From: an uncultured Lachnospiraceae bacterium
GTDB lineage: Bacteria > Bacillota > Clostridia > Lachnospirales > Lachnospiraceae
DNA: 64,000 nucleotides
Direction of reading: 5' to 3'
Assembly (NCBI GenBank): GCA_951800225.1
Contig: CATOJX010000004.1
Span: 6,578-70,577 of the forward strand
The notes below the pieces were generated by a model. That model made no database searches and was not told the origin of the DNA. It saw nothing but the letters and a program-made list of their open reading frames with translations. Shown piece after piece: positions 2,929 through 56,562 of the stretch. Position numbers and translations under genes: made by a program. The first letter of the stretch is position 1. Each line of letters begins with the position of its first letter.

Positions 2929-3396
2929 ATGAGACTTGGATGGCTGCAGCTTGCGCTTGGTCTGTTTCAGGCAGATCTGGCGGTGAAAGAGGAGATAGAG
3001 AGGAATCCGAAATTTGACCGGGAGCATGTTCTGTGGGACGGGAAAATTCGGGTGAAAAGGTTACATAATGACGGAATGGCTGGTGGAAAATGCAAAGGCC
3101 ATATGCCGGCATTAATTAAGGTCAGCGGTTGTATGACACTCGGATGCGCAGGAATGTTTTTCAGGCTTCTTGGAAAAGAGGGGCATACGGCACAAAAATT
3201 AGGCTGCGCGCTTCTGACAGGAGGAGCGCTTTCCAATCTGTATGACCGGTGCAGGAGGGGATATGTGGTAGATTATATCAGTTTTGGGACGCCGTTAAAG
3301 AAGCTGAACAATCTGGTGTTTAATCTGTCCGACTTTTTTATACTGACAGGAGCGTTTCTGATATGTTTGGGCCGGACAGACCGTACAGAAGAGTGA
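2929..3396 (+). CDS. Lipoprotein signal peptidase (signal peptidase II, LspA)-like membrane protein
   Basis: LspA-like motifs are present: HNDGMAGG (compare N.GaAF), SNLYDR...VVDYISF and FNLSDFFI. Both catalytic Asp contexts are retained. The N-terminal half is atypical. Confidence 0.6.
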   Translation: MRLGWLQLALGLFQADLAVKEEIERNPKFDREHVLWDGKIRVKRLHNDGMAGGKCKGHMPALIKVSGCMTLGCAGMFFRLLGKEGHTAQKLGCALLTGGALSNLYDRCRRGYVVDYISFGTPLKKLNNLVFNLSDFFILTGAFLICLGRTDRTEE

Positions 3397-4466
3397 CGGG
3401 CAACCGGTTTTTTTCAGGGATGCTTGGACTGGCGATAATGCTTCAAATACTGGCCAGATATGTACCGGGATTCGCGGAAGGGTACGCCAGATATGTTTAT
3501 CCGGTGATTCTAAGAGGATTGGGAGGCATAAGCAATCTGGTTCCTTTTGCATTGGATGAGGCATTGATTTATATTCTGATTCTGCTTATAGTCGGGTATC
3601 TTGCAGCAGGTATCCGGCATATGATGAAGATGCAGGAAACAGTGAAAGAGTGGTCGGTAAAAACAATCCAAAGACTTATAAAAGCCGGGATTTTATGGTT
3701 CTTTTTATTTACGGTCAACTGCGGTGTGAATTATCACAGGGCGACATTTTCTGAACTGGCTGAGATTCCGGTGGAACTTTCTACGGTTGAGGAGCTGGAA
3801 GGGCTTTGCCTGTGGCTGACAGAGAAGATTGAGAAAACTGCGCCCCGGATCAGGACGGAGGAAAACGGTCTGTGCGCAATGCCTGATCAGATGCGGGAAA
3901 AGACCAGACAGGCTATGACAGAGCTTGGAAATACATATCCGCAGCTGGCGGGCTGGTATCCCAAGGCGAAGCCGGTATTTACCTGGCGGGTATTGTCTAT
4001 GGAGGCTTTAGAGGGTGTTTCAGGTCCTTATACGATGGAAGCCAATTACAATCCGGATATTCCGGCGCATAATCAGCCGGCGGTACTTTGCCATGAATTG
4101 TCCCACTTAAAAGGCTTTATGAGAGAAGACGAGGCTAATTATATTGCCTATCTTGCCTGTACCGGTTCCGAGGATGCTAATCTTAAATACAGCGGACTTT
4201 TGCTTGCCTACACGCACAGTATCAACGCATTGTATCGCGCGGACCGGGAACGGTTTTCGGATGTAAGAAAAAGGCTGTGTGAGCAGGCGGAGAGAGACTA
4301 TGCTTATCATAGAGAATACTGGAAGCAGTTCGAAGGTCCGGTGGCCAAAGTCTCTGATAAAGTGAACAATGCCTACTTAAAGGCAAACGCACAGAAAGAG
4401 GGCAGCAGAAGCTATGGGCGTATGGTAGATCTGCTGCTTGGAGAATACCGGCGTAGGGAAGATTAA
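3363..4466 (+). CDS. DUF3810-family membrane protein with HExxH zinc-metallopeptidase-like motif
   Basis: N-terminal TM segments, then HELSHLKGFMREDEANYIAY, which is typical of DUF3810. The start overlaps the 3' end of the preceding gene. AGGAG lies 10 nt upstream of the ATG at 3363; the start is uncertain. Confidence 0.65.
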   Translation: MFGPDRPYRRVTGNRFFSGMLGLAIMLQILARYVPGFAEGYARYVYPVILRGLGGISNLVPFALDEALIYILILLIVGYLAAGIRHMMKMQETVKEWSVKTIQRLIKAGILWFFLFTVNCGVNYHRATFSELAEIPVELSTVEELEGLCLWLTEKIEKTAPRIRTEENGLCAMPDQMREKTRQAMTELGNTYPQLAGWYPKAKPVFTWRVLSMEALEGVSGPYTMEANYNPDIPAHNQPAVLCHELSHLKGFMREDEANYIAYLACTGSEDANLKYSGLLLAYTHSINALYRADRERFSDVRKRLCEQAERDYAYHREYWKQFEGPVAKVSDKVNNAYLKANAQKEGSRSYGRMVDLLLGEYRRRED

Positions 4467-4506
4467 TTAATCTTCCCGGTCGGGAAAGTTTTGCCCCGGC
4501 GCAGAA

Positions 4507-4947
4507 TTAATCGCTACCCTGGGCTTTATCAAGAGCAGTTTGGATGGCTCCCATCAGCATCAAAGAAGTATATTGGCTGTCTTCAGAGTAAGTAAGGTTT
4601 TCCAAAGACTGAGCCTTTATGATCTGTTCTGAAAGCGATTCTAAAGCAGGTTCCATCAAAGGATACATGGCAGATACCGTCTCATCTAACTGACGAAAAT
4701 GGATGGATGAGATATAATCTTTATCTACAGTGACGGCAATTTCCACAGGATGGCCTCCCAGGGTCATGGAAGCCGTGTATATGCCGGCCGTGTATTTGGA
4801 TGGAAGGTCTACGGCTGCGGCAGGCGCTTTGTCAGAGGAGAACATAAAGATCATCAGCAGGAGGAAAAGGATGCCCAGGGCGACGAAAATCCCCGTATAG
4901 ATCAGTTCCTTCATGTGGAAAACCCATATTTTTGTTTTGGCGCTCAT
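4507..4947 (-). CDS. Small membrane-anchored hypothetical protein (possibly a degenerate FMN-binding-like fold)
   Basis: Good RBS (AGGAG 7 nt upstream) and a single N-terminal TM helix. The extracytoplasmic domain has only weak resemblance to FMN_bind domains and lacks a clear flavinylation motif. Confidence 0.5.
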   Translation of the reverse strand: MSAKTKIWVFHMKELIYTGIFVALGILFLLLMIFMFSSDKAPAAAVDLPSKYTAGIYTASMTLGGHPVEIAVTVDKDYISSIHFRQLDETVSAMYPLMEPALESLSEQIIKAQSLENLTYSEDSQYTSLMLMGAIQTALDKAQGSD

Positions 4948-5176
4948 GGCGAAACTCCTGTATAGAAGATTCTTTGTTATAACTTATGTGGGTGTGGACG
5001 GATTTATGAGCGGCGGGGTGCCAAAAATTATTGAAAAACCTCTTTCTTTTTTTGCTGTTTTGCATTAGTATAGTATCATAGGTATCTAGCATCTAAAAAT
5101 CTTACGGTTTTTGGCGGATATTTCCGAGGGAGTATGTGCAATATCGCCAAAAGAATGTGCGTAAAGGAGAAAAAGT

Positions 5177-6262
5177 ATGATATCAAATCAGATACTCCAA
5201 AACACAATTGACGGATTGAAAGGGATTACCAGAATAGATCTTTGTATTCTGGATATTGAAGGGAAGGTGCTGGCTTCTACGGAGCGGGAATCTGGGAGCC
5301 ATGAGGATGAGGTTGTTGCCTTTACAGCGTCGCCTGCCGACAGCCAGGTAGTTCATGGCTATCAGTTTTTTAAAGTGTTTGATGAAAATCAGCTGGAATA
5401 TATACTGCTTGCGAAAGGGTCCAATGATGATGTGTATATGGTAGGGAAGATGGCGGCTTTTCAGCTTTCTTGTCTTCTGACTGCTTATAAGGAAAGGTTT
5501 GATAAGGACAATTTTATTAAAAATCTTCTGCTGGACAATCTTCTGCTGGTGGATATATATAACCGCGCCAAAAAGTTACATATAGCGACAGAAGTAAGGC
5601 GTGTAGTATTTATGATCGAGAGCAACAGGGAACAGGTAAATGCCGCTTTGGACAGCGTGCGCAATTATTGCGGGGCAAAGTCTAAAGATTTTATTACTGC
5701 TGTGGATGAAAAAAATGTCATTGTAGTCAAAGAACTGGAACCGGATGAAGGATACGACGAGATGATTGTTGCGGCCAAAGGTATGAGGGCGGCCGTCGTC
5801 CAAGGGGATGAGGATATTCATGTAGCCATCGGTACGATCGTAGGAGAGATTAAGGAAGTGTCTCGTTCTTACAAAGAGGCGAGGATGGCTTTGGATGTGG
5901 GACGGATCTTTTTCGGCGACAGAGAGATCATTGCATACAGTTCTCTTGGCATTGGCCGTTTGATCTATCAGCTGCCTATTCCTTTGTGTAAAATGTTCAT
6001 ACGCGAGATTTTTGACGGAAAATCTCCGGATGATTTTGACATGGAGACTTTGACGACGATCAATAAATTTTTTGAGAACAGTTTGAACGTATCCGAAACG
6101 TCCAGGCAGCTTTATATTCACAGAAATACCCTCGTGTACCGTCTGGATAAGCTGCAGAAGTCCACAGGGCTGGACCTTCGCATTTTCGAGGATGCTATTA
6201 CATTCAAGATTGCGTTGATGGTCGTAAAATATATGAAATATATGGAAACATTGGATTATTAA
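5177..6262 (+). CDS. PucR/CdaR-family transcriptional regulator
   Basis: C-terminal PucR-type HTH (SETSRQLYIHRNTLVYRLDKLQKSTGLDL). RBS AAAGGAGA. Confidence 0.8.
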   Translation: MISNQILQNTIDGLKGITRIDLCILDIEGKVLASTERESGSHEDEVVAFTASPADSQVVHGYQFFKVFDENQLEYILLAKGSNDDVYMVGKMAAFQLSCLLTAYKERFDKDNFIKNLLLDNLLLVDIYNRAKKLHIATEVRRVVFMIESNREQVNAALDSVRNYCGAKSKDFITAVDEKNVIVVKELEPDEGYDEMIVAAKGMRAAVVQGDEDIHVAIGTIVGEIKEVSRSYKEARMALDVGRIFFGDREIIAYSSLGIGRLIYQLPIPLCKMFIREIFDGKSPDDFDMETLTTINKFFENSLNVSETSRQLYIHRNTLVYRLDKLQKSTGLDLRIFEDAITFKIALMVVKYMKYMETLDY

Positions 6263-6284
6263 AATATATTATGGGAGGATATCC

Positions 6285-6965
6285 ATGATAAAACTGGATA
6301 ATGTTGTAAAATCTTATCAGAATGGCGTAGGCGCCATTAACGGGATAAGCCTGTTTATTGACAGGGGAGAGTTTGTCTTCATTGTCGGGGACAGCGGCTC
6401 CGGTAAGTCAACATTGATCAAATTGCTTTTAAAAGAACTGGAACCTACAGAAGGAACGATCCGTGTAAACGGTGTGAATCTCGCCCGCATGAAAAAGCGG
6501 GCGATTCCCAAGTATCGGCGTAAAATCGGTTGTGTGTTTCAAGACTTCCGACTTCTGAAGGACAGAAATGTATATGAGAATGTGGCTTTTGCCCAACGGG
6601 TTGTGGCTACGCCTACGAGGCAGATTAAAAAAGATGTGCCTGCCATGCTGTCTTTAGTGGGGTTGGCAGAAAAGTACAAATCCTTTCCCCGACAGCTTTC
6701 CGGCGGAGAGCAGCAGCGGGTGGCGCTGGCCCGTGCGCTGGTGAACAGCCCGGATATTTTGCTGGCGGACGAGCCTACGGGTAACCTGGACCCTAAAACC
6801 TCCAGAGAAATTATGAAGCTATTGGAAGAAATTAATGCCCGGGGTACGACGGTGCTTGTTGTGACCCACGATCAGGACATTGTCAATACGCTTAAAAAGA
6901 GAGTGATCCGCATGCAGAAGGGGATCATTGTCGGTGATAAAAAAGAAAGCGGGTATATTGGATGA
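6285..6965 (+). CDS. ftsE: Cell-division ABC transporter ATP-binding protein FtsE
   Basis: Walker A GDSGSGKS, signature LSGGEQQR and Walker B LLADEP. The stop overlaps the ftsX start (ATGA). Confidence 0.92.
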   Translation: MIKLDNVVKSYQNGVGAINGISLFIDRGEFVFIVGDSGSGKSTLIKLLLKELEPTEGTIRVNGVNLARMKKRAIPKYRRKIGCVFQDFRLLKDRNVYENVAFAQRVVATPTRQIKKDVPAMLSLVGLAEKYKSFPRQLSGGEQQRVALARALVNSPDILLADEPTGNLDPKTSREIMKLLEEINARGTTVLVVTHDQDIVNTLKKRVIRMQKGIIVGDKKESGYIG

Positions 6966-7870
6966 GATTAAGTACGATTGGATACTGCCTGCAGCAGGGG
7001 TTTAAGAACATCTGGCGGAATAAATTATTTTCTCTTGCTTCTACGGCGACAATGGCTGCCTGTATCTTTATGTTTGGAGTTTTTTTCTGTATGGTACAGA
7101 ATTTTCAGCATATTTTAAGGGAAGTAGAAGAAGGCGTAGGCGTTACTGTTTTTTTTGAAGAGGATACATCGGAGGACGAGATCCGGGAGATCGGCGAGCA
7201 GATGCGTTCAAGAGCGGAGATTCGGGAGATTGTTTTTGTGTCTGCGGAGACAACCTGGGAAGAATATAAGAAGATTTATTTTTCGGAAGCACCCGAACTT
7301 GCAGACGGTTTTGCTTCCGATAATCCTTTAGCGAACCATGCGCACCTGGAAATTTACATGAAAGATGTGGCGCAGCAGCAGGATTTGGTGGATTATCTGT
7401 CTTCCATCGAACAGGTAAGAAAGATTAACAGGTCGGATAAGGTGGCGGATATGCTGACCGGATTCAACCGTTTAGTCAGTTATGTGTCCGTGGCTGTGAT
7501 CGGGCTTTTGCTGGCGGTGGCTGTCTTTTTGATCAGCAATACGGTGGCGATCGGCATTTCGGTCCGAAAGGAAGAGATCGGTATTATGCGATTAATCGGG
7601 GCGAAAAATTCTTTTATAAAAGCGCCCTTTTTGATTGAGGGTATCATTATCGGCCTGATTGGGGCGGCAATTCCGTTGACGGTTTTGTATTATCTTTATA
7701 ATCGGCTGATTCTTTATATGGCTGAAAAGTTTGATATGCTTACGGGTGTGCTGGATTTTCTTCAGGTCAATGAACTGTTTCGTGTCCTGGCGCCGGTGGG
7801 ACTGATTCTTGGAGTCGGCATCGGACTGTTCGGCAGTGTGTTTACGATTCAAAGGCATCTGAAAGTGTAG
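6962..7870 (+). CDS. ftsX: Cell-division permease-like protein FtsX
   Basis: FtsX topology: TM1, a large extracytoplasmic loop, then three C-terminal TM helices. It is translationally coupled to ftsE. Confidence 0.9.
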   Translation: MRLSTIGYCLQQGFKNIWRNKLFSLASTATMAACIFMFGVFFCMVQNFQHILREVEEGVGVTVFFEEDTSEDEIREIGEQMRSRAEIREIVFVSAETTWEEYKKIYFSEAPELADGFASDNPLANHAHLEIYMKDVAQQQDLVDYLSSIEQVRKINRSDKVADMLTGFNRLVSYVSVAVIGLLLAVAVFLISNTVAIGISVRKEEIGIMRLIGAKNSFIKAPFLIEGIIIGLIGAAIPLTVLYYLYNRLILYMAEKFDMLTGVLDFLQVNELFRVLAPVGLILGVGIGLFGSVFTIQRHLKV

Positions 7871-7888
7871 CGGGGGATAAAGAAATCT

Positions 7889-9118
7889 ATGAAAAGACGC
7901 AAGTTTCGGCCTTTTCTTGTATGGATACTTTTAATAGCCGTGTTCCTGTCCGGGATAGACGGCCAGTTTGTCGTATGGGCCAAAAAGAGCGTTTCTGACC
8001 TGGAGGAAGAGATAGACGAGCTGGAAGGGAAAAGACAAGATACATTAGATGAGATACAGTCACTGAAATCAGATATCGATTCTGTGGAACAGAGGATTCA
8101 AAGTCTGAAAGAGGCAAGTAGTAATTTACAAGCCTATATCGATCAGTTGGACCGTCAGGTGAATTCCCTTTCTTCCCAGATTTCCGAGATGGAAAAGAAG
8201 ATCGAGGAGAAGAATCAGGAGATAGAAGCCAAAAAAGAAGAACTGGCACAGGCAGAGGCCCGGTTGGACGAACAATATGAGATGATGAAAAAAAGAATCT
8301 GCTATATGTATGAAAATGGAGGCCAGTCTTTTCTTGACCTTTTGTTGACATCAGGGAGTGTGGCGGATATGTTAAATAGGGCAGAGTATGCGATGAATAT
8401 TTCAGCCTATGATCGGCAGATGATGGAGAATTTGAAGCAGTCCAGAAATTTGATTGCAGAATATAAGGCGGCTCTGGAGGCGGAACAGGAGGAACAAAAG
8501 GAGCTTTTAGAAAAGCTTCAATCTCAGAAGGAGGCGGTGAATCGGGCGATGAGCGCCAAAACGCAGGAAATCATTTCTTATCAGGCGCAGATTGGTACTG
8601 CTTCAGGAGATCAGGAGGAATATGAACGCCAGCTGGCGGAACAGGAGAAATTGTTAGATCAGGTCGAGCAGCAAATTGCGTATGCGGCTGCCGCGAAAGC
8701 TGCTGCGGAAGATGGAGACGGCGGCGCGTCCGGGTTTATGTGGCCCTGTCCGGCCAGCCATCGGATCACAAGCTATTTTGGCCCCAGGTCAGCGCCTGTT
8801 CCAGGCGCGTCTACAAATCATAAAGGAATTGATATAGGAGCGCCCAGCGGTTCCGACATTGTGGCGGCTGCATCCGGTCGTGTGACTACGGCTGCTTATA
8901 GCGGCTCCGCGGGTAATTATGTGGTTGTTTCCCATGGAAATGGGGTATCGACGGTATATATGCATGCATCGGCGCTATATGTGTCCGAAGGGGAGAAGGT
9001 TGAACAGGGGCATAAGATTGCCGCTGTAGGTTCCACAGGCTTTTCCACAGGGCCGCATCTGCATTTTGGCGTGATTGTGTATGGCAATTATGTAAATCCT
9101 TTGAATTATGTTCATTGA
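7889..9118 (+). CDS. Secreted coiled-coil protein with C-terminal M23 (LytM) peptidoglycan endopeptidase domain
   Basis: Signal/anchor sequence and about 250 aa of heptad-rich coiled coil. The M23 motifs NHKGIDIG (HxxxD) and GPHLHFGV (HxH) are intact. Confidence 0.88.
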   Translation: MKRRKFRPFLVWILLIAVFLSGIDGQFVVWAKKSVSDLEEEIDELEGKRQDTLDEIQSLKSDIDSVEQRIQSLKEASSNLQAYIDQLDRQVNSLSSQISEMEKKIEEKNQEIEAKKEELAQAEARLDEQYEMMKKRICYMYENGGQSFLDLLLTSGSVADMLNRAEYAMNISAYDRQMMENLKQSRNLIAEYKAALEAEQEEQKELLEKLQSQKEAVNRAMSAKTQEIISYQAQIGTASGDQEEYERQLAEQEKLLDQVEQQIAYAAAAKAAAEDGDGGASGFMWPCPASHRITSYFGPRSAPVPGASTNHKGIDIGAPSGSDIVAAASGRVTTAAYSGSAGNYVVVSHGNGVSTVYMHASALYVSEGEKVEQGHKIAAVGSTGFSTGPHLHFGVIVYGNYVNPLNYVH

Positions 9119-9159
9119 TCCTTAATACAATGGAAGGAAGAGAAAAGGAGAGACAGCAA

Positions 9160-10344
9160 ATGGAAGACAGCAGTAAAAAGCATTCTTTTGGAAAAGGGCT
9201 TGTGGCAGGCATGGTAGCAGCCGCGATCATATTCGGTCTGACTGGCCGCGTGGGACAATTTATCTCTTCCCGATTAGGGGGACGCGGCGCACAGGAGGAA
9301 AGGATAGACGCCAAGTTAGATGAGCTGGACCAGTATATCGATCAGTATTATCTGTTTGATTATGAGGAAGAGAATCTGGAAAGCGGAATCTATAAAGGTC
9401 TGATGGCGGGATTGGGAGATATCTATACAGGGTATTATACGCCGGAAGAGTACGCCAGTTTTATGGAGACATCCAATGGTGCTTACAGCGGGATTGGAGC
9501 TATGCTAAGACAGGACTATAGGAACGGAATTATCGCGGTCTATCGAGTGTTTGACGGTTCGCCTGCGGCAGAGGCCGGGATAGAAGAAGGAAATATTCTT
9601 TATACTGTGAAAGGTGAGGAAGTGACAGGGAAGGATCTGTCGCTTGTAGTGACAGACCTAAAAGGGGAAGAAGGTTCCACGGTGGATATAAGTATTCTGA
9701 AAGATCCGTCGGATCCGGCATCGGAGGTGGCGCTTACTTTAACCCGCAGGCATATTGAGGTGCCGACGGTAGAATTTCAGATGATTGATCAGGAGATCGG
9801 TTATATTGCCATTACAGAATTTGACGATGTGACGGATGATCAGTTTATGGCGGCATTGGACGCGTTGGAGGCGCAGGGAATGAAAGACCTGGTGATTGAC
9901 CTTCGAAATAATGGCGGAGGTTTAGTGGATGTGACCTGTGCGATTTTGGACCGATTGCTTCCGGAAGGTCTGATTGTATATACGGAAGATAAATATGGGA
10001 ACCGTCAGGAAGAAAAGTCTGATGCAGAACATTATTTTTCGGGCGGCATGGCAGTGCTGGTTAATGGCAATAGCGCCAGTGCGTCAGAGATTTTTGCCGG
10101 AGCCATCAAGGATTATGGTGTTGGCGTGCTGGTAGGAACTCAGACCTTTGGCAAAGGGATTGTCCAGAGCCTCTTTCCTTTAAGCGACGGTTCGGCGGTT
10201 AAGATCACCGTATCCAGATATTATACACCTAAAGGAAATAATATTCATGAAGTGGGGATTACGCCCGATGTGATTCTTGAATATGACGAGGATGCAGAAG
10301 AAGACAATCAGCTTATGAAAGCGCTGGAAATTTTAAGCAAGTGA
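9160..10344 (+). CDS. ctpA: S41-family carboxy-terminal processing peptidase (CtpA-like) with PDZ domain
   Basis: S41 motifs GNSASASE (Ser) and TFGKG (Lys), plus an N-terminal TM helix. The ATG at 9160 has AAGGAG 9 nt upstream; the ORF-track start at 9115 is a TTG overlapping the upstream stop. Confidence 0.88.
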   Translation: MEDSSKKHSFGKGLVAGMVAAAIIFGLTGRVGQFISSRLGGRGAQEERIDAKLDELDQYIDQYYLFDYEEENLESGIYKGLMAGLGDIYTGYYTPEEYASFMETSNGAYSGIGAMLRQDYRNGIIAVYRVFDGSPAAEAGIEEGNILYTVKGEEVTGKDLSLVVTDLKGEEGSTVDISILKDPSDPASEVALTLTRRHIEVPTVEFQMIDQEIGYIAITEFDDVTDDQFMAALDALEAQGMKDLVIDLRNNGGGLVDVTCAILDRLLPEGLIVYTEDKYGNRQEEKSDAEHYFSGGMAVLVNGNSASASEIFAGAIKDYGVGVLVGTQTFGKGIVQSLFPLSDGSAVKITVSRYYTPKGNNIHEVGITPDVILEYDEDAEEDNQLMKALEILSK

Positions 10345-18070: not shown

Positions 18071-18106
18071 GGGAGGGACAAAGTATCCCTCCCATATCTG
18101 TTTTTA
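18071..18106 (+). terminator. Possible terminator after putP
   Basis: Stem GGGAGGGA (18071-18078) pairs with TCCCTCCC (18086-18093). The T-run (18101-18105) starts 7 nt after the stem, so this is a weak call. Confidence 0.4.
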
Positions 18107-18177
18107 GGGCATTTCCTTTTTGCGCATATAGTGGTATACTGTTATAGGAAAAGGCGGAAGGAAAGGTATGGTGCAAG

Positions 18178-21100
18178 ATGGAAAAGGAACTGGTATACCA
18201 GATATTAGGACTCCGCGAACTGACGGATGAGCGGAGCATAAAAGCGGCTTATATGCAAAAACTAAAGGGAACAAACCCCGAAGATGATCCGGAAGGCTTC
18301 CGGAAACTCCGGGAGGCTTATGAGCAGGCACTTGAGCTGCTGCGCAGATCAGAAGAAGAAAAAGAAGAACAACCGAAGACGGAAAAAGATATTTGGATCG
18401 ACAAAGTAGATAAAGTATATAAAGATTTCCGAAGCAGAGGGAATGCGGAAGCGTGGAAGGCGCTTTTCGAGGATGAGTATTGCCAAAGCCTGGATACTTC
18501 TTTGGAAGCGAGGGATGCCATACTTAGATATTTGATGTCCTGCTTCTATTTGCCCAGAGAGGTCTGGAAGAGTCTGGATGACGAATTCCAGATCATGGAA
18601 GATTATGACAATCTAAAAGAACATTATCCTGAAGACTTTCTGGAATATATCAGACATTATATACAGTATGACTATTATGTGAATTTTGACAGGATGCGCT
18701 TAAGAGACGATACATTGTCTGTGGAGGATACGAATGTAGACGAATATATCCGAACTTATCAGGATTTAAGAGGACTGTGCGACCAGGAGGAGTGGAAGCA
18801 GGCGGAGGAAAAGCTTTCGGATATAGCTGCTTACGGCGTCTGGTATCCCTGGGAGGATGCGGAGCGTGTGCGTGTGCTGGAGGCAAAAGGAGAACTTGAG
18901 CAGGCGGATACTTTGGCGCAAAAACTCATTGCAGACTGGCCCGAGGATCAATACCTTCTCCTTCGGGCAGCGAATGTGAAATGGACGCTGGGGGATAAGG
19001 AAGAGGCTTTTGCACTGTGGAGCCGGTCGCCGGACAACCATGATGCCAGGATCGGGTTGATTAAATATTATCTGGAAAATGAAGAAACCGCAGAAAAAGC
19101 AAAAGATATGGCGCTGGATATATGGGAGCAGGATGGTTCCGGCCAGCGGGTTGACGAATATATTAAGCGCGCCAACGAACTTTTACTGCGTCAATATGGG
19201 CGCAAGCTGACAGAACTGGAAGACGGACCAGATAAAGACGCGGTTCTTCTGGAGATTGCTTGGTGTAAATATCAGGACCGGGAGATGGAAGAATCACTCC
19301 GCATCCTGGATGATATGAATCCGGCAGATGATATTTATTACAGTTATCACAATCTGAAAGGTCGTGTACTGGCGGCTTTGGGGAAAAATAAAGAAGCAGT
19401 ACCAGAGCTGAGGATCTGGCTGTCCATGATCCTGGAGACTGTAGACGACGGAAGTGAAGAGTCGCAGAAACGGCTGCGCAGAAAAGGGACTGCCTATTTG
19501 ATGTTGGGCTTTTGTTTGACAAAGACCGAAGAATACGACGAAGCAGTGGAAATGCTTAAGAGAGCAGAAGAAGAGATCACCGACCTGTCGGAAAAATTCG
19601 GAGCCATGAATACCCTGGCAGAAACATATCTTAGCATGGAAGAGTATGAGCGTGCGGTGGATAAATGTGATCAGATCATAGCCGGGGAAAGCGGCTATTA
19701 TCCGGCCTATGTAAACCGCCAGAAGGCATATTTTGAGATGCAGAAATCCCAGGGAGTAGTGGATGACTACTACCGGGCGGTGGAGATCTATCCAGGGTAT
19801 TATATGCCATATCTGCTGGCGGCCAAAGTGTTTTTCTTCTGCCGTCAGTATGAGGACGCGAAAGGCGTCCTTGCGCGCGCTACGGAGAATGGAGTGGAGT
19901 TCAGCGACGAGATGAAGCTGTTCCAAGTGAAGATTCTTCGGAACCTGGCGCAAAGCGAGCAGGAGCGGGAAGAACCCATGGGCATTGTCCAGGAACTCAA
20001 AAAGTCCGTGAATCCGGAAGAGACGGATCTGGAGGATTCATCGGAGATTGAATATGAGACGGCACTTCTGTATTGGGACAACGGCCAGTTGGATACAGCT
20101 CTTAAGCATCTGGGTATGGCAATCCGTCAAAATCCTTCCAGGGGACAATATTTTATGGTAAAAGGCGATCTGCTCCGTCAGAAAGATCAGTATAAAGAGG
20201 CGCTTTCGGCCTATCAGACAGCCAAAGAGGATTATGAGGGGACTGCCGTATATTATTATGGAGTCGGCTGCTGTTATGAGGGTATGGGAGACAGTGAGAC
20301 GGCGCTTTCGCATTTTATGAAAGCGGCGGAGCAGGATGCCGGATATCGGGACGTGAATGAGAAAATTTCGGATATTTATATGGAGAGATACAAGACAGGG
20401 TATGATCCGGAAGATTTCTCCAGAGCCATGGTCTATATAAAACATGAGATAGAAAACTGGGAAGGCTGTTATATACTGGTTCATCGGGGACTTATGTATA
20501 TGGAAGTCATGCAGCTTGAAAAAGCCATAGAAGACTTTGAAAAAGCGCTGACTTATCAGCCGGACGACTGGGCTGCTTATAATAATATGGGCTACTGCTA
20601 TAAGCATAAAGGCGACTACAAAAAAAGTATTGAAATGTATGAAAAGTCTTTGGCGGCTCTAAAGCAAAGAAATGATAAGCGTGTGCTTCCCTACAGCAAT
20701 ATGGCGGATTGTTACGAGATTTTAGGAGAATATGAGCGCGCGGTGGATTGCTATGAGAAGGACCTTGAGTGGTATCCGGACCGCATTTCCTTTTATCAGG
20801 AGATCGGGGATATGTATTTTTACATGGGAAATTATCAAAAGGCGATCAAAACCTATGAGACAGCAGGTTCCAAATGGCAGAATAAAGAATATCTGATAAA
20901 AATCGGCGACGCCCTGTTTGCCCAGGGAAAATTTCTTCGGGCCAAAGGGAATTATAAAAAGGCGATGCAGACGGCGGATATTAAAGGGGATGCTTATTAC
21001 AGATACAATGATTATGCGGAGCGTCTGATAACCCAATATTTTGATTATAAAGGAGCCATTGCGATCCTTCAGAAAGCGAACCAGGGTCTTTCAAAAGCAG

Positions 21101-21552
21101 GCTGGAGTGCGTCTAGGAATGCGCATGGGACAAACGAACGGTTCCAGGCCAGGGCGTACTACCTGTCCGGAAATCTAAAAGAGGCAGCAGAACACGCAAA
21201 AAAGGCGCTGGATCTGTATCTTGCGGATGCCTATTCAGAGGAAGCATATCTGGAATATCCGGCCAGCCGTCCGCTGCATTTGTCAAGGATCGGGGAATGT
21301 TATCTGTATATGGGCCAGGCGGAGAAAGCATACGAGTTGTTTGGGCAGATGGGAGACGGCTATCGGTGCGAGCATTGCCGCTTTTCAGAATGTTATGAAA
21401 AATATCGAAACCTCGGACTATATTATGTAGGCCTTGGGGGGAAATATAAACGGGACGCTTTAGAAAATTATGAAAAAGCTTTAAACATCAGCGCGCACGA
21501 TTTGGAATTGAAAGAAATGGTCAAAAAACTTCGTAAGGAGACGGGAAAATAG
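18178..21552 (+). CDS. Large (1124 aa) TPR-repeat protein with N-terminal J-like domain lacking the HPD motif
   Basis: The N-terminus VYQILGL...IKAAYMQKLKGTNPEDDPEGFRKLREAYEQA aligns to J-domain helices I-III, but NPE replaces HPD. The remainder is many TPR-like repeats (Y/W/A-rich 34-mers). A C-terminal Cys cluster CEHCRFSEC is present. Confidence 0.8.
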   Translation: MEKELVYQILGLRELTDERSIKAAYMQKLKGTNPEDDPEGFRKLREAYEQALELLRRSEEEKEEQPKTEKDIWIDKVDKVYKDFRSRGNAEAWKALFEDEYCQSLDTSLEARDAILRYLMSCFYLPREVWKSLDDEFQIMEDYDNLKEHYPEDFLEYIRHYIQYDYYVNFDRMRLRDDTLSVEDTNVDEYIRTYQDLRGLCDQEEWKQAEEKLSDIAAYGVWYPWEDAERVRVLEAKGELEQADTLAQKLIADWPEDQYLLLRAANVKWTLGDKEEAFALWSRSPDNHDARIGLIKYYLENEETAEKAKDMALDIWEQDGSGQRVDEYIKRANELLLRQYGRKLTELEDGPDKDAVLLEIAWCKYQDREMEESLRILDDMNPADDIYYSYHNLKGRVLAALGKNKEAVPELRIWLSMILETVDDGSEESQKRLRRKGTAYLMLGFCLTKTEEYDEAVEMLKRAEEEITDLSEKFGAMNTLAETYLSMEEYERAVDKCDQIIAGESGYYPAYVNRQKAYFEMQKSQGVVDDYYRAVEIYPGYYMPYLLAAKVFFFCRQYEDAKGVLARATENGVEFSDEMKLFQVKILRNLAQSEQEREEPMGIVQELKKSVNPEETDLEDSSEIEYETALLYWDNGQLDTALKHLGMAIRQNPSRGQYFMVKGDLLRQKDQYKEALSAYQTAKEDYEGTAVYYYGVGCCYEGMGDSETALSHFMKAAEQDAGYRDVNEKISDIYMERYKTGYDPEDFSRAMVYIKHEIENWEGCYILVHRGLMYMEVMQLEKAIEDFEKALTYQPDDWAAYNNMGYCYKHKGDYKKSIEMYEKSLAALKQRNDKRVLPYSNMADCYEILGEYERAVDCYEKDLEWYPDRISFYQEIGDMYFYMGNYQKAIKTYETAGSKWQNKEYLIKIGDALFAQGKFLRAKGNYKKAMQTADIKGDAYYRYNDYAERLITQYFDYKGAIAILQKANQGLSKAGWSASRNAHGTNERFQARAYYLSGNLKEAAEHAKKALDLYLADAYSEEAYLEYPASRPLHLSRIGECYLYMGQAEKAYELFGQMGDGYRCEHCRFSECYEKYRNLGLYYVGLGGKYKRDALENYEKALNISAHDLELKEMVKKLRKETGK

Positions 21553-23247
21553 ATGATAGTAGGAATTGATCTTGGGACAACGAACAGCCTTGTGGCATAT
21601 TATACAGAAGACGGGCCAAAGATTATCCCCAATCGGCTTGGAAAATCCATGACTCCGTCGGTAGTTGGTATCGATGAAGAAGGACAAATCTATGTGGGCG
21701 AATCGGCGATAGAACAAATGCTGCTTCATCCTGACAGAGGCGCCTCTTTGTTTAAACGGAGCATGGGCAGCAATCGTAAATTTACGCTGGGTAATAAGTC
21801 GTTTACGGCAGAAGAACTTTCTTCTTTTGTTCTGCGTTTTCTAAAAGAAGACGCGGAGGCCTACTTGGGGGAGCCGGTGACGGAGGCTGTGATCAGCGTA
21901 CCTGCTTACTTTAACGACGCCAGAAGACGTGCCACTAAGAGGGCCGGGGAACTGGCGGGGCTAAAGGTAGAGCGTATTATCAGCGAACCCACGGCAGCGG
22001 CAATTGCTTATGGTCTGTGGCAGCAAAAGGGACAGGCCAGATTTCTTGTGTTTGATTTGGGCGGCGGCACATTTGATGTATCAATACTGGAGCTTTATGA
22101 TACAATACTGGAAGTACATGCAGTGGCGGGAGACAATTTTCTTGGAGGAGAAGATTTTACAGCCGTATTGGAGAAGATGTTTTATGAGGAATTTCCCCAG
22201 ATTGACCGGTTTTCTCTGAATGAAAAGATTTGTGCTCACATAAGGAAGCAGGCGGAGTTGTGCAAGATGGGGTTTGGTCAGTCCCGCACATCTGTTATGA
22301 AATGCAATGTCAAAGGAGAAGAATATACATTCACAGTGGAGCTTTCTGATTATGAGGAGGCCTGTGAAGAACTTCTGGACAGAATACGCCAACCGGTCAA
22401 GAGGAGTTTAAAAGATGCTCATATCCGTTTGTCAGATATTGATAAGGTGGTTCTGGTAGGCGGTGCCACTAAATCTCCGGTGATCCGTAAATTCGCGGGT
22501 AAATTGTTCCATATGCTGCCGGATACCAACGTGAACCCTGACGAAACCGTAGCATTAGGAGCAGCGATTCAGGCTGCTATGAAAGAGCGAAAAGACAGTG
22601 TCCGTGAGGTGATCTTAACGGATGTCTGCCCCTTTACCCTGGGTACGGAGGTGGTCAGGGAATACGCAGAACACCGGTTTGAAGACGGCGTGTTTCTGCC
22701 GATTATAGAGAGGAACACGGTGATTCCTGCCAGTCGTACGGAACGTCTGTATACGGTAAGGGATAATCAGACCAAAATACGGGTTCATATTCTTCAAGGA
22801 GAAAGCCGGTTTGCCTCTAATAATCTGTCTTTGGGTGAGCTTTTTATTGATGTGCCAGCAGGTAAAGCAGGGGAAGAAGCGGTGGATGTTACCTATACTT
22901 ATGATATTAACTCGATCCTGGAGGTAGAGATTAAATCTGTCTCAGACGGTAAAAAAGTGCGTCAGGTGTTCAAAGATCAGGGACTTGACATGAGTGAAGA
23001 AGAGATAGAAGAGCGTTTGGAGACATTGTCTTACCTGAAGATTCATCCCAGGGAAAAGGAGGAGAATAAATTCCTGCTGCTTCGGGGAGAGCGGATCTAT
23101 GAGGAAAGCCTGGGAATTAAACGTACACAGGCAGAGCGTGTTCTCAGAAATTTTGAGCATGCGCTGGATTCTTATGATGCAGATCGGATCGCGGAGACAA
23201 AGCAGGAGTTGATTGAATTTCTGGAAAAACATGATGAATGGGAGTAG
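21553..23247 (+). CDS. Hsp70-family ATPase, short HscC-type paralog
   Basis: IDLGTTNS, DLGGGTFDVS and VLVGGATKSP motifs are intact. At 564 aa it lacks the long DnaK C-terminal lid tail. The start codon directly abuts the upstream stop. Confidence 0.88.
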   Translation: MIVGIDLGTTNSLVAYYTEDGPKIIPNRLGKSMTPSVVGIDEEGQIYVGESAIEQMLLHPDRGASLFKRSMGSNRKFTLGNKSFTAEELSSFVLRFLKEDAEAYLGEPVTEAVISVPAYFNDARRRATKRAGELAGLKVERIISEPTAAAIAYGLWQQKGQARFLVFDLGGGTFDVSILELYDTILEVHAVAGDNFLGGEDFTAVLEKMFYEEFPQIDRFSLNEKICAHIRKQAELCKMGFGQSRTSVMKCNVKGEEYTFTVELSDYEEACEELLDRIRQPVKRSLKDAHIRLSDIDKVVLVGGATKSPVIRKFAGKLFHMLPDTNVNPDETVALGAAIQAAMKERKDSVREVILTDVCPFTLGTEVVREYAEHRFEDGVFLPIIERNTVIPASRTERLYTVRDNQTKIRVHILQGESRFASNNLSLGELFIDVPAGKAGEEAVDVTYTYDINSILEVEIKSVSDGKKVRQVFKDQGLDMSEEEIEERLETLSYLKIHPREKEENKFLLLRGERIYEESLGIKRTQAERVLRNFEHALDSYDADRIAETKQELIEFLEKHDEWE

Positions 23248-23251
23248 GGAC

Positions 23252-24421
23252 ATGGATTTGCAGCAGATGCTTTATACCATGTGGGAAGCAGGTCCTTATA
23301 AAGTTGTCATAAGCAATCCTGTTTTTAAGGCGGAATCCAGCTTTGATAAGCTGGTGATGAACCGCCTTGAGACAGGTTGGCAGGTGGAAAAATACACGAG
23401 GACACAGGTGTTTCATGAGAATCTGTCCGTAGAAGAAGCTTTTACATTTCTTTTGGAAGCCATGCAGGGCGGTTTCAGACAGTGTAACGCCTGGGATGAA
23501 AGTAAAGAATATACAATTCGCATATCCAAAGGAGGAAAGATTTTCTGTCAGAAGAAAAATACGATCAAAGCCCCGAAGGCAAAAACTTCTCATGATCGTA
23601 AAAAAAATTACATATTACAGGAAGGGATGGTAATTCCGCCTCTTAAGGATATGGGTATTTTTACCGCAGAGGGGAAAGTCGTCCGCTCTATGTACGACAA
23701 GTACAAACAGATCAATCGATTTGTGGAGCTGATAGAAGATGAGATTGATTGCCTTCCCAAAGATAGAACGATTCATGTGATTGATTTTGGATGTGGTAAA
23801 TCTTATCTGACTTTTATTCTTTATTATTACCTTACAGAAGTAAAATCCATGGATGTGTATATGGTAGGGCTGGATCTGAAAGCTGATGTCATTGAAAACT
23901 GCAACCGCGCGGCAGAAAAATATGGTTATAAAAAACTCCATTTTGAGCTGGGGGACATTTGCGGGTATGAGGTTTCCTGTCCTGTGGATATGGTGATTTC
24001 TCTTCACGCCTGTGATACGGCTACGGATTATGCCCTTTATAACGCGGTCCGATGGAAGGCGAAGCTGATCTTTTCAGTTCCCTGTTGCCAGCATGAGCTG
24101 AACCGTCAGATGGCGAGTGCAGAGTATGCTCTGATGACCCGCTACGGTATTGTAAAAGAGCGCATGGCAGCTTTGCTGACAGACGCTATACGCGGAAATT
24201 TGCTGACGGAGTGCGGGTATAAGACACAGCTTTTAGAATTTGTCGATCTTTCCCATACGCCCAAAAACATACTGATCCGGGCGGTGCGGACCGTGCTTCC
24301 CAGGTCGGTCAGAACAAAAGCCCGCCAGGAAGTTGAGTCTGTAAAACGGCAGTTTGGCTTCCGGCCTAAACTGGACGAACTGCTTGCCGGGGATATAAGA
24401 GAGGAGCATATTTATGGATAA
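23252..24421 (+). CDS. Class I SAM-dependent methyltransferase (unknown substrate)
   Basis: Motif I VIDFGCGKSYLT, an acidic loop GLDLK, and post-I/II motifs. The ATG at 23252 lies 4 nt after the Hsp70 stop. Confidence 0.75.
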   Translation: MDLQQMLYTMWEAGPYKVVISNPVFKAESSFDKLVMNRLETGWQVEKYTRTQVFHENLSVEEAFTFLLEAMQGGFRQCNAWDESKEYTIRISKGGKIFCQKKNTIKAPKAKTSHDRKKNYILQEGMVIPPLKDMGIFTAEGKVVRSMYDKYKQINRFVELIEDEIDCLPKDRTIHVIDFGCGKSYLTFILYYYLTEVKSMDVYMVGLDLKADVIENCNRAAEKYGYKKLHFELGDICGYEVSCPVDMVISLHACDTATDYALYNAVRWKAKLIFSVPCCQHELNRQMASAEYALMTRYGIVKERMAALLTDAIRGNLLTECGYKTQLLEFVDLSHTPKNILIRAVRTVLPRSVRTKARQEVESVKRQFGFRPKLDELLAGDIREEHIYG

Positions 24422-25331
24422 AATTTTAATTATTGATGACAGTGCTGTGCAGGCAAAATTTGTGAGAAATATTTTGCAGGAAGAGTATGATGTGACGGTA
24501 TGTCAGACGGCGGAAAAGGGACTTCAATACGCAAGGACAGGAGCGTATTCTCTGATTCTTTTAGATGTGATCATGCCGGGAATGAATGGTTTTAGTTTGT
24601 TAAAAGAACTCCAGGAAACAGCGCTTACCAGACATTTTCCGGTAATTCTGATTACCAGCCTTGACGATACGGAGAATGAAGAGCGGGGGCTTATATTAGG
24701 GGCGGTGGATTACATTACCAAACCATTCAATCCAACGATCGTAAAAGCAAGAGTCAATACGCACATTCGGTTGTTTAATTATCAGATGCGCTACAGGGAG
24801 CAGGCGATGTTAGATGAGCTGACCGGTGTCGCCAACCGGAGAAGCTATGAAAACAACAGTCGGATGAAGTGGCAGGAGGCCATCCGTTTTGAGGTTTCTT
24901 TTTCGGTCTGCATGATTGATGTGGATAAATTCAAAGTGTACAATGACACGTTCGGACATCCTGCGGGAGATAAGGTGCTGGCTTCGGTGGCTAAAACCGT
25001 ATCTTCTTATTTGAAACGTGCCACTGACTTTTTCGCCCGCTACGGAGGGGAAGAGTTTGTCGTGATTTTCTTAAATAACAGCCCTCGGGGTGCTTATGAA
25101 TTTATGAAAAGAATTCGTCAGGCAGTGGAAAGTCTACATATCCCTCATAATCCTTCGGTGTCTGAGTGGGTCACGATCAGCGTCGGCGGGTTTACCTGTT
25201 TTCCAAAAGAAGGGGATTCTTACGAGAGTTGCCTGAAAATTGCGGATAATATGCTGTATGAGGCAAAAGGAACCGGCAGAAATATGGTAGTGTGGTCTAA
25301 TGAAAAAAAGGAAAAGTGGAGGGAAAAATAA
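24414..25331 (+). CDS. Response regulator receiver-GGDEF diguanylate cyclase
   Basis: REC domain (DD...D in LILLDVIMPGMNG, and K in ITKP). GGDEF domain with an intact GGEEF and an RxxD I-site (RATD) 5 residues upstream. The start overlaps the upstream stop by 8 nt. Confidence 0.9.
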   Translation: MDKILIIDDSAVQAKFVRNILQEEYDVTVCQTAEKGLQYARTGAYSLILLDVIMPGMNGFSLLKELQETALTRHFPVILITSLDDTENEERGLILGAVDYITKPFNPTIVKARVNTHIRLFNYQMRYREQAMLDELTGVANRRSYENNSRMKWQEAIRFEVSFSVCMIDVDKFKVYNDTFGHPAGDKVLASVAKTVSSYLKRATDFFARYGGEEFVVIFLNNSPRGAYEFMKRIRQAVESLHIPHNPSVSEWVTISVGGFTCFPKEGDSYESCLKIADNMLYEAKGTGRNMVVWSNEKKEKWREK

Positions 25332-25335
25332 AGAT

Positions 25336-25378
25336 CGGGCATCTGTTCCTGACAGTCAGGGGCAGATGCCCGGTTTTT
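25336..25378. terminator. Bidirectional terminator between the GGDEF gene and pyrG
   Basis: A 10-bp stem CGGGCATCTG (25336-25345) pairs with CAGATGCCCG (25363-25372), with an inner palindrome CCTGAC-A-GTCAGG. T-runs lie on both sides. Confidence 0.7.
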
Positions 25379-50481: not shown

Positions 50482-50605
50482 GCTAAGTGGCGATTTGGCA
50501 CCCTACTGGAGTTGGCGAATAGATGATGCAAACTGTATTGTTTATCGTATAGAAGATAATGTGATAAAGATTGTTCAATGTGGTTCTCATTATAGAGATA
50601 AGTAA
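50474..50605 (+). pseudogene. Internally deleted YoeB/Txe-family toxin (43 aa remnant)
   Basis: The ORF MIK-LSGDLAPYWSWRIDDANCIVYRIEDNVIKIVQCGSHYRDK overlaps the antitoxin stop (ATGATTAA). It retains the YoeB C-terminal half (WS.RI...VY...C.GHY) but lacks about 40 N-terminal residues. Confidence 0.7.
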
Positions 50606-50642
50606 AGATGGCGTTCATACGCAGGATGGAGGAAAATTAAGT

Positions 50643-52238
50643 ATGGCTGAAGGGAAAGATTTATTGCAGGTGTTGTGGAATGGCGCGGATGTACTTAGAG
50701 GAAAAATGGACGCAAATGAGTACAAGACGTATCTTTTAGGATTGATTTTCTATAAATATTTATCGGATTCCTATTTGGCAAAGGTGTATGATATCCTGGA
50801 AGATGAAAGCCCAAATAGCCTTGAAGAAGCGCAGCGTGTGTATGAAGAAGCAATGGATTCGGATGATGCTGAAGATTTATTGGCGGAGCTAAAGAAGTCC
50901 AAACATTATACGCTTGATCCCAACATGACTTATATAAGCATATTAAATATGGTAAAAAATAATTCATTTAACAGAGAGAAGCTGCAGGCGGCTTTTAACC
51001 GAATAGAGGAATCGGACGAGTTATTCAATGGCCTGTTTGCCGATGTGGATTTATATTCAAACCGGCTTGGTACCGGAGACCAGAATCAGAGCGCGACAAT
51101 TGCGGAAGTCATCAGGGTATTGGATGGCGTGGACATTATCCATACGGAGGGGGACGTCCTCGGTAATGCGTATGAGTATATGATCGGCCAATTTGCATCA
51201 GAAACAGGCAAAAAAGCCGGAGAATTTTATACACCCCATGGGCCGGCGCAGATTCTTTGCCGGATTGCCATATCCGGACAGGAAGAGAAAAAGGGGTTGC
51301 AGGTCTATGACCCATGTATGGGATCTGCTTCTTTGATGCTTGGCTGCAGGAATTATTCAAAAGAGCCTGACTACATTAAATACTATGGCCAGGAGCTGAT
51401 GCCGTCAACTTATAACCTGGCGCGTATGAACATGTTCCTGCACGGAGTCTTGCCCGAAAACCAGCACCTGCGCAATGGAGATACGCTTGATGCGGACTGG
51501 CCCACAGACGAAGAGACGGAGTTTGACGTCGTAACGATGAATCCGCCGTATTCTGCTAAATGGTCTGCCGCGGAAGGATTTAAGCAGGATGAAAGATTTA
51601 TGGATTACGGCGGGAAACTTGCCCCCAGGTCAAAAGCAGATTATGCCTTTTTGCTGCACGGTTTCTATCATTTAAAGCAGACGGGTACAATGGCGATTGT
51701 CCTTCCGCACGGTGTTTTATTCAGAGGCGCCGCAGAGGGAACCATCAGACAGACGCTTCTCGAAAACGGTTCCATATACGCAGTCATCGGGCTTCCTTCC
51801 AATATGTTTTATAATACATCCATTCCCACCTGCATTGTAGTGTTAAAAAAACACAGGGAAGGAAGAGACGTATTATTTATTGACGCTTCCAAACTGTATG
51901 AAAAAGAAAAGAAGCAGAATGTTATGCGGCAGGAACACATTGACAGAGTACTGGAATTATACCATGACAGGAAACCTGTGGATAAAGTGGCTTATCTTGC
52001 ATCTTTTGAAGATATAAAAAATAATGATTATAACTTGAATATCCCAAGGTATGTGGATACCAGTGAAGAAGAACCAGAAGTGGATCTTAAACAGCTTTCC
52101 GGCCGCATAAAGGAAACAAACAGGGCGATTAAGGCCGGAAATGATGCATTGTTGGAAATGCTTGGAGAACTGACTTTTGCAGATCCTGAAACGAAAGATG
52201 CCGTTGAAGAACTTATGAATGTCCTAAGGGAGGTTTGA
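50643..52238 (+). CDS. hsdM: Type I restriction-modification system, N6-adenine DNA methyltransferase subunit
   Basis: HsdM_N region (LWNGADVLRGKMDANEYKTYLLGLIFYKYLSD), motif I DPCMGSASLM and motif IV NPPY. GGAGGA RBS precedes the ATG at 50643. Confidence 0.93.
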   Translation: MAEGKDLLQVLWNGADVLRGKMDANEYKTYLLGLIFYKYLSDSYLAKVYDILEDESPNSLEEAQRVYEEAMDSDDAEDLLAELKKSKHYTLDPNMTYISILNMVKNNSFNREKLQAAFNRIEESDELFNGLFADVDLYSNRLGTGDQNQSATIAEVIRVLDGVDIIHTEGDVLGNAYEYMIGQFASETGKKAGEFYTPHGPAQILCRIAISGQEEKKGLQVYDPCMGSASLMLGCRNYSKEPDYIKYYGQELMPSTYNLARMNMFLHGVLPENQHLRNGDTLDADWPTDEETEFDVVTMNPPYSAKWSAAEGFKQDERFMDYGGKLAPRSKADYAFLLHGFYHLKQTGTMAIVLPHGVLFRGAAEGTIRQTLLENGSIYAVIGLPSNMFYNTSIPTCIVVLKKHREGRDVLFIDASKLYEKEKKQNVMRQEHIDRVLELYHDRKPVDKVAYLASFEDIKNNDYNLNIPRYVDTSEEEPEVDLKQLSGRIKETNRAIKAGNDALLEMLGELTFADPETKDAVEELMNVLREV

Positions 52239-53470: not shown

Positions 53471-53473
53471 ATT

Positions 53474-56431: not shown

Positions 56432-56562
56432 CATATTCAAGATAGTTATCGATGAATTGGTACATAGATACCGTATATGTGCAGGATAGAAATGCATTTA
56501 TGAATTGTGACTTTCGTTAGTTTCATAGGCTACTCCTTTTTCTTTATATATAGAGCTAATAT

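Follow-up and report, generated by a model that had tools for sequence, protein, structure and literature searches.

We analyzed a 64,000-nucleotide (nt) stretch of DNA from an uncultured Lachnospiraceae bacterium (GenBank assembly GCA_951800225.1, contig CATOJX010000004.1), here called the window, in which positions count from the first letter, and describe four tightly packed plus-strand genes within it. The first (18178-21552) encodes a 1124-amino-acid (aa) putative co-chaperone with a J-like domain and an array of tetratricopeptide repeats (TPRs), hereafter J-TPR; the second (21553-23247) encodes a 564-aa Hsp70 of the HscC type; the third (23252-24421) encodes a methyltransferase of 389 aa when read from the ATG at 23252, a mechanical list of open reading frames (ORFs) opening this frame at a TTG at 23213 instead; and the fourth (24414-25331) encodes a 305-aa REC-GGDEF protein. 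Read directly from the sequence, the TAG of the J-TPR gene (21550-21552) is followed immediately by the Hsp70 ATG at 21553 (a junction of 0 nt), the Hsp70 TAG (23245-23247) is separated from the methyltransferase ATG by the four nucleotides GGAC (+4 nt), and the REC-GGDEF ATG at 24414 overlaps the methyltransferase TAA at 24419-24421 (-8 nt). Each of the four starts has a purine-rich ribosome-binding site 5' of it. These coordinates and junctions agree with an initial annotation of this DNA, which had gone on to propose that the four genes form a dedicated chaperone-gated signalling or surveillance module. The phyletic pattern of the genes contradicts that proposal: what is conserved is the J-TPR/Hsp70 pair alone, and with a probability of roughly 0.7 we read the locus as a two-gene HscC/J-TPR chaperone system accompanied by two lineage-specific passenger genes.

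Gene order, coupling and gene families were observed directly, as was the pattern of conservation across 159 loci. A species scan with one genome per GTDB species gave 80 loci from Lachnospiraceae, Hungatella, Lachnoclostridium and others (Hsp70 identity, 72-98%); the four window proteins served as the first queries against these loci, and a methyltransferase profile and the GGDEF domain as the next. A second scan, seeded by distant family members in which the J-domain triad reads His-Pro-Glu (HPE), gave 79 metagenomic loci. When the Hsp70 and the methyltransferase were used as queries against a protein database, the best 120 matches consisted of close relatives only. The J-TPR gene stands immediately 5' of the Hsp70 gene in 78 of the 80 species loci, with junctions that range from a 4-nt overlap to a gap of ∼200 nt, and an adjacent same-strand Hsp70 gene accompanies the J-protein gene in 48 of the 79 distant loci; for all 48 of these Hsp70s, HscC gives a better score than DnaK or HscA does. 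In the window itself, the two genes are translationally coupled, so that their products are made together.

The initial annotation had made its module depend on co-conservation of the four genes beyond close relatives, and this is where the module is refuted, because co-conservation is limited to those relatives. A methyltransferase gene follows the Hsp70 gene in exactly 19 of the 80 species loci, all in a clade whose Hsp70s are at least 84% identical to that of the window; 19 of the 20 species of this clade carry the gene and one member lacks it, and it stays downstream even where another gene is inserted between (L007 and L008). Among the 61 species loci without the methyltransferase, 59 keep the J-TPR/Hsp70 pair. 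The REC-GGDEF gene adjoins the cluster in a single species locus, L006 (Hsp70 98% identical), which probably represents the same or a sister species of the window organism. Neither the methyltransferase nor the cyclase was found in the 79 distant metagenomic loci, so that the totals stand at 19/159 loci for the methyltransferase and 1/159 for an adjacent GGDEF gene, with all four genes together in L006 only. The nearest other relatives have a different gene, one without a homologue in the window, in the slot between the methyltransferase and the CTP synthase gene pyrG, and the remaining species have heterogeneous genes downstream. We thus read the methyltransferase as a clade-specific passenger and the REC-GGDEF protein as a species-level addition.

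Several loci depart from the layout of the window. In 40 of the 48 paired distant loci (within L102-L166) the gene order is reversed, Hsp70 then J-protein, with a median gap of 46 nt, and many J-proteins of the reversed loci match the query in the J-domain only. An uncultured Lachnoclostridium (L022:3069-9995) has two tandem J-TPR genes, at 3069-6596 and 6600-9995, before its Hsp70 gene, and the co-chaperone gene is duplicated there. A Lachnospiraceae metagenome-assembled genome (L026:7889-11692) carries a shortened J-TPR of ∼685 aa with the triad Asn-Pro-Glu (NPE) in frame with the Hsp70, as a single 1267-aa ORF with no stop between them. Such an ORF could be a genuine fusion, in which case it speaks for a physical partnership of the two proteins, or it could have arisen as an artefact of assembly or deletion. 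At L083 (7800-11695) a histidine kinase gene and an OmpR-type response regulator gene lie directly upstream of the Hsp70 gene, and at L042 (503-4012) a SipL/LysM sporulation gene lies upstream of it.

The 564-aa Hsp70 matches the Pfam HSP70 family at 430 bits. It aligns over its full length with Escherichia coli HscC (44% identity, 447 bits) and scores lower to E. coli DnaK (35% identity, 318 bits) and HscA (34% identity, 240 bits); it also falls under the NCBIfam cut-offs for both DnaK and HscA, reaching 440 against the 648 bits of the DnaK model. HscC proteins are distinguished by a length of 550-580 aa, a deletion at DnaK residues 76-101, an insertion in loop L1,2 of the β-subdomain of the substrate-binding domain (SBDβ) and a short tail (PMC8215388). 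All of these length and indel hallmarks are present in the window protein, in which the lobe-I deletion corresponds by alignment to DnaK 76-101, the L1,2 insertion is 9 residues long (EYAEHRFED) against 4 in E. coli HscC, and the short, acidic tail ends in KHDEWE. It is also genetically paired with a DjlB/DjlC-type J-protein, in 78/80 species loci and 48/79 distant loci, and its many close relatives in the Lachnospiraceae carry the NCBI name "molecular chaperone HscC."

The residues on which an Hsp70 cycle would depend are conserved as well. Equivalents of the DnaK residues that contact the His-Pro-Asp (HPD) triad of J-domains (R167, Q378, L391 and P419) are kept in 77/77 HscCs with an NPE partner, as are equivalents of the catalytic and allosteric residues D8, K70, P143, D148, E171 and T199. 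The PDB, searched by sequence, yielded no HscC structure and only weak J-domain matches. By score and by indels, the Hsp70 is an ordinary HscC-type member and not DnaK. The initial annotation had described it as a short paralog with intact ATPase motifs, distinct from DnaK, and that description agrees with the HscC score of 447 bits against 318 for DnaK, with the indels and with the conserved catalytic residues.

The J-TPR protein begins with a J-like domain (aa 1-60; 18178-18357, plus strand) that scores 23.5 bits to Pfam DnaJ, below the cut-off. A family-specific helical region follows (aa 61-350; 18358-19227, plus strand), which is the region of PF27158 DjlB_C_2nd in orthologues, and the remaining ∼770 aa (19228-21549, plus strand) form a TPR array matched by multiple TPR families, with TPR_1 at 1.7e-41. 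DjlB and DjlC are known to pair exclusively with HscC (PMC8215388, PMC13254874), and the J-domain of the window protein is 46% identical to that of E. coli DjlB and 34% identical to that of DjlC (BLASTP E = 2e-10); hhalign against DjlB/DjlC gives a probability of 98% with only residues 6-99 aligned, and the signature.PE.DP.GF..LR.AYE.AL is common to all three proteins. Precomputed matches to PF27158 lie just after the J-domain in orthologues P0391-P0397 (52-61% identity) and in the partner genes of L002-L005, and the model was unmatched on the window protein in a Pfam copy that may not hold it. The protein has no transmembrane segment, with a maximum 19-residue hydropathy of 1.05 against 2.39 for DjlB and 1.99 for DjlC, and its C terminus is TPR. 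An AlphaFold2 model of residues 1-450 is all-helical (pLDDT 85) and was matched by Foldseek to generic TPR scaffolds only (APC/C, OGT and Ski3). Because of the all-helical model, these scaffold matches and the Pfam TPR matches, everything after the J-domain, ∼1,050 residues, reads as a TPR-type solenoid, which would presumably serve as a partner- or client-binding scaffold. The J-like/TPR giant that the initial annotation placed first in the block holds up, its TPR families being confirmed and its J-like domain, sub-threshold in Pfam, being DjlB/DjlC-like; on these features we assign it as a soluble co-chaperone of ∼1,100 aa with a DjlB/DjlC-type J-domain.

The family to which this protein belongs is large. 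An exhaustive search with residues 1-350 matched 263 clusters at 50% identity when E was limited to ≤ 1e-30, and 2,781 cluster representatives at the looser limit of E ≤ 1e-3, most of the matched proteins being ∼1,100 aa long; a protein-database search with the J-TPR N terminus returned 7 fragments only. Across L006-L085 the length is steady at ∼1,110-1,150 aa, and the protein diverges far faster than its Hsp70, with identities of 93, 62, 51 and 36% where those of the Hsp70 are 98, 89, 85 and 75%. In the literature searched we found no description of the J-TPR family, which comprises at least 263 clusters at 50% identity; against that background, the novel features are that a DjlB/DjlC-type J-domain is fused to a giant soluble TPR protein, that the family is of this size and that loss of the triad histidine is conserved.

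The triad of the window protein is N33-P34-E35, encoded at 18274-18282. In this it departs from the HPE of the DjlB/DjlC type, and so do its orthologues in the 78 species, every one of which reads NPE. The surrounding motif NPEDDPEGF(K/R).LR.AYE is essentially invariant in these 78/78 orthologues. The J-domain is the most conserved segment of J-TPR, the rest dropping to ∼30% identity, and this difference argues that the J-domain is under selection. Among the best 150 family representatives, the triad is NPE in 131, HPE in 18, SPE in 1 and HPD in none. The literature searched contains no mention of an NPE J-domain. DjlB and DjlC are the textbook case of a tolerated HPE (PMC8215388, PMC13254874, PMC10410713). 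From the conservation of the triad region and of the Hsp70 residues that would receive it, we consider that the NPE J-domain probably still acts on HscC. The stronger claim, that the domain is fully functional and that a large family of soluble J-TPR proteins drives HscC-type Hsp70s without the "essential" HPD histidine, we put forward tentatively, as a possibility somewhat more doubtful than probable; to it one could append, more weakly still, a modification of the chaperone or its client by the methyltransferase in the genus of the window.

We also asked whether any Hsp70 residues track the N or H state of the partner triad, and rejected this line of evidence, all discriminating columns being confounded by phylogeny. 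At the position of DnaK N170, a neighbor of the J-contact residue R167, all 77 NPE-partnered Hsp70s have Ser, and the 41 HPE-partnered Hsp70s have Asn (32) or Ser (9). The pattern is suggestive yet confounded by phylogeny in the same way, and we do not use it as evidence.

The methyltransferase scores 144.9 bits to Pfam PF13679 Methyltransf_32 (threshold, 27), and its glycine-rich S-adenosylmethionine-binding motif, VIDFGCGKSYL, is invariant in 31 homologues. The AlphaFold2 model (pLDDT 83) has a Rossmann fold and a β-rich N-terminal domain of ∼105 aa. Foldseek with this model returned generic class I methyltransferases only, at TM scores of ∼0.3, the longest alignments including the rRNA methyltransferases RumA and RlmCD; the sequence shows a weak similarity to Trm13, and a PDB sequence search found no close relative. 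Taken together, the modelled fold and these matches hint, very weakly, at RNA rather than protein as the substrate.

The 305-aa REC-GGDEF protein matches Pfam GGDEF at 148 bits and Response_reg at 87 bits. It has a GGEEF motif at aa 211, an RATD (RxxD) I-site five residues upstream, and an intact phospho-acceptor pocket (a DD pair, D51 and K103), and from these motifs it looks like a catalytically competent single-REC diguanylate cyclase. It stays below all NCBIfam equivalog cut-offs (PleD, 226 against 474 bits; DgcR, 180 against 500 bits). It shares with single-REC cyclases of the WspR/PleD/DgcR type the REC and GGDEF domains, the GGEEF site, the RxxD I-site and the intact pocket, and differs from them in falling below the named cut-offs, in the lack of a cognate kinase found in the window and in a chaperone link confined to one species. 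Horizontal acquisition of the cyclase gene was considered and rejected: the gene stands out neither in overall GC content, which is 0.44 where the J-TPR and Hsp70 genes have 0.46-0.47, nor in GC content at third codon positions.

The block has well-defined boundaries. A bidirectional hairpin terminator at 18071-18093, with an 8-10-bp stem, 6 G-C pairs and T-runs on both strands, closes the upstream sodium:solute symporter gene and forms the 5' boundary of the unit. A candidate extended -10 element on the plus strand, TGgTATACT (18132-18140), was read by eye 38 nt before the start codon; a promoter consensus scan omitted it, a good -35 element being absent. The 3' boundary is a strong bidirectional intrinsic terminator at 25330-25378, a 23-bp hairpin with a U-run (ΔG, -37.3 kcal/mol; z = -8.4 against shuffles), common to the four-gene block and to the convergent pyrG gene. 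It was absent from the list of a simple terminator scan and was seen by hairpin folding against shuffles. Between the two terminators the scan gave only weak 5-pair terminator-like matches, all inside the J-TPR gene, and its total of such matches was no higher than the shuffle expectation. The terminator that the initial annotation had placed after 25331 is therefore real, and no convincing internal terminator was found between the boundaries. On the basis of spacing and terminators, all four genes are probably co-transcribed here.

This organization speaks for the module of the initial annotation; in such a module the HscC/J-TPR pair would sense, the methyltransferase would mark and the REC-GGDEF protein would signal through c-di-GMP. 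The junctions of 0, +4 and -8 nt and the lack of a convincing internal terminator make a single transcript likely, the cyclase has the look of a competent enzyme, and the window ORFs scanned gave no histidine kinase. With a spacer of 4 nt and an overlap of 8 nt, the two downstream genes could also have a genuine functional tie to the pair in this lineage, a point that counts against calling them passengers. The distribution of the genes nonetheless makes the four-gene module very improbable, with the REC-GGDEF gene at 1/80 and the methyltransferase at 19/80 species loci, neither in the 79 distant loci, and a different gene between methyltransferase and pyrG in close relatives; a syntenic housekeeping context and the lack of any meaningful PADLOC match point the same way. 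A narrower version would keep the methyltransferase as a true third component in the genus-level clade, methylating HscC, J-TPR or a client by analogy to the eukaryotic Hsp70 lysine methyltransferases. Its position right after the Hsp70 gene on the same strand in 19 of the 20 clade species, retained downstream even past an inserted gene (L007 and L008), would fit such a role, but common descent would by itself preserve synteny among species of one genus, the gene is absent from the 61 other genome loci (59 of which keep the pair) and from the 79 metagenomic loci, and the Methyltransf_32 assignment, the weak Trm13 similarity and the RumA/RlmCD alignments hint very weakly at RNA. We therefore regard this version as quite unlikely, if less so than the full module.

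The remaining alternative concerns the pair itself. The NPE domain may be degenerate and non-stimulating, in which case the role of the giant TPR protein would be to tether HscC to a scaffold, or to inhibit or regulate it. In every tested system the HPD histidine is reported to be essential, its exchange (e.g., for Gln) abolishing ATPase stimulation, and HPE is the only tolerated HPD variant reported (PMC13254874, PMC8215388). Because loss of the histidine abolishes stimulation in those systems, the NPE J-domain may fail to stimulate HscC altogether. The domain is not canonical in other respects, with a score of 23.5 against the threshold of 27.8 for Pfam PF00226 DnaJ, no HPD in the protein and HPD in 0/150 family representatives. 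Pairing is not complete either: L042 and L083 are the only 2 of the 80 species loci that hold the Hsp70 without an adjacent J-TPR gene, and L090, L093, L095-L101 and L119 hold HPE-type J-TPR relatives (∼900-1,100 aa, 22-25% identity) with no Hsp70 within 6 kb, so that pairing with an Hsp70 is not universal across the wider J-TPR family. The reported need for the histidine, the sub-threshold score and the incomplete pairing all weigh against the two-gene chaperone system. Against a degenerate domain stand the triad region itself, the most conserved part of the protein and invariant in 78 species, the retention of HPE, as in the functional DjlC, in 18/150 family representatives, and the conservation of all Hsp70 residues that would receive the triad; the Asn could also still donate the hydrogen bond that His33 would make to the linker backbone. 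On balance a tether or regulator with a non-stimulating domain is unlikely, though the least unlikely of the three alternatives.

For the two-gene chaperone system that we favor, we propose the following mode of action. The TPR solenoid would bind a specific client or partner complex, and the J-domain would dock at the interface of the nucleotide-binding domain, linker and SBDβ of ATP-bound HscC and trigger hydrolysis, whereupon HscC would clamp the client delivered by the scaffold. A GrpE-type exchange factor would not be expected to be needed, as for HscC generally. In these steps we infer both the stimulation of the ATPase by the NPE J-domain and the binding of clients by the TPR array. The phyletic pattern shows the passengers to be later arrivals, 3' of a pair that already existed: the methyltransferase joined the pair in the ancestor of one genus-level clade, and the REC-GGDEF gene did so only in the species lineage of the window, relatives having another gene there.

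HscC with DjlC is already a known partnership, and the window pair is a variation on it. The initial annotation had drawn this analogy, and E. coli HscC with DjlC (YbeV) and DjlB (YbeS) is indeed the closest known system by Hsp70 score and J-domain type. The two Hsp70s are members of one subfamily (44% identity; lengths of 564 aa in the window and 556 aa in E. coli) and share the lobe-I deletion, the SBDβ insertion and the short acidic tail, and the J-proteins share the J-domain type, a non-HPD triad ending in E and a gene adjacent to that of the Hsp70. DjlB and DjlC, however, are tail-anchored membrane proteins of ∼480 aa with HPE, whereas the window partner is a soluble protein of 1124 aa with NPE and a TPR solenoid of ∼1,050 residues; the E. 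coli genes are divergent or separate, whereas those of the window are translationally coupled; and the Sel1-repeat proteins YbeQ and YbeT of E. coli come from separate genes, whereas the repeats of the window protein are fused to the J-domain. In the E. coli K-12 hscC locus (L001:1571-9394) a DUF1266 gene followed by a J-protein gene occurs twice, as ybeR-djlB and ybeU-djlC, each near a Sel1-repeat gene (ybeQ and ybeT). The presence of ybeQ and ybeT beside the J-protein genes indicates that TPR-like repeats accompany HscC J-proteins there too, separately encoded.

Other chaperone systems are more remote. With DnaK-DnaJ-GrpE the window Hsp70 shares conserved ATPase, allosteric and J-triad-contact residues, and it is set apart by 35% identity, by its HscC-type indels and by a window without a CIRCE element or a dnaJ homologue. 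Eukaryotic DNAJC3/p58IPK and DNAJC7 likewise combine TPR repeats and a J-domain in one co-chaperone. They have a C-terminal HPD J-domain, far fewer repeats and canonical Hsp70 partners; we found no sequence relationship between them and J-TPR beyond the generic domains. TPR-containing J-proteins are a recognized architecture class (PMC10410713).

The surroundings of the block are housekeeping in character and show conserved synteny, with hydF, genes for Rrf2 and TetR regulators and the sodium:solute symporter gene upstream and the convergent pyrG, ftsH and uvrC downstream. As the initial annotation had noted, no DnaJ homologue is found nearby; there is neither one nor a second Hsp70 in the 64-kb window, nor a CIRCE/HrcA operator, and no histidine kinase, which it had also reported missing near the REC-GGDEF gene, appears among the large window ORFs scanned. 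No grpE or hrcA family was matched among the ORFs scanned, no sequence search having been aimed at them, and no Rfam family was matched at 16-28 kb of the window. PADLOC models gave only marginal partial matches on the locus, of which the strongest, at 8e-7, was to a generic methyltransferase region, and a role as a defence system was rejected in view of the lack of a credible match, the conserved core-gene synteny and the absence of a defence-island context. The only defence-like island in the window lies 25 kb away, at 50571-58827, and comprises type I restriction-modification genes (hsdM, 50571-52238; hsdS, 52235-53470; hsdR, 53474-56431) and a minus-strand gene for a Dcm-type C5 cytosine methylase (57616-58827). 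This stretch (50.5-58.8 kb) has a low GC content of 0.36-0.42, against ∼0.46-0.48 elsewhere in the window, and is probably an acquired island unrelated to the four-gene block.

Of the three types of bacterial Hsp70, HscC is the one about which least is understood, and in the Lachnospiraceae, which are abundant gut bacteria, we find it nearly always paired and coupled with a giant soluble TPR scaffold. The pairing with a soluble scaffold points to a defined protein complex, and not the membrane, as the site where HscC would act, and the scaffold could serve as bait for finding HscC clients. The locus also provides an example of tight gene packing without a conserved four-gene functional module. 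The invariant NPE bears on the question of whether non-HPD "J-like" domains are evolutionary accidents or selected variants. If the NPE domain is fully functional, the J-TPR family would have been overlooked by J-domain censuses that use the Pfam threshold or HPD/HPE. It would then be a case in nature that breaks a rule obeyed by every J-domain tested, as well as a handle on the cellular job of HscC. The NPE J-TPR family gives chaperone research a real if modest lead, in which the conserved loss of the histidine is the point of most interest.

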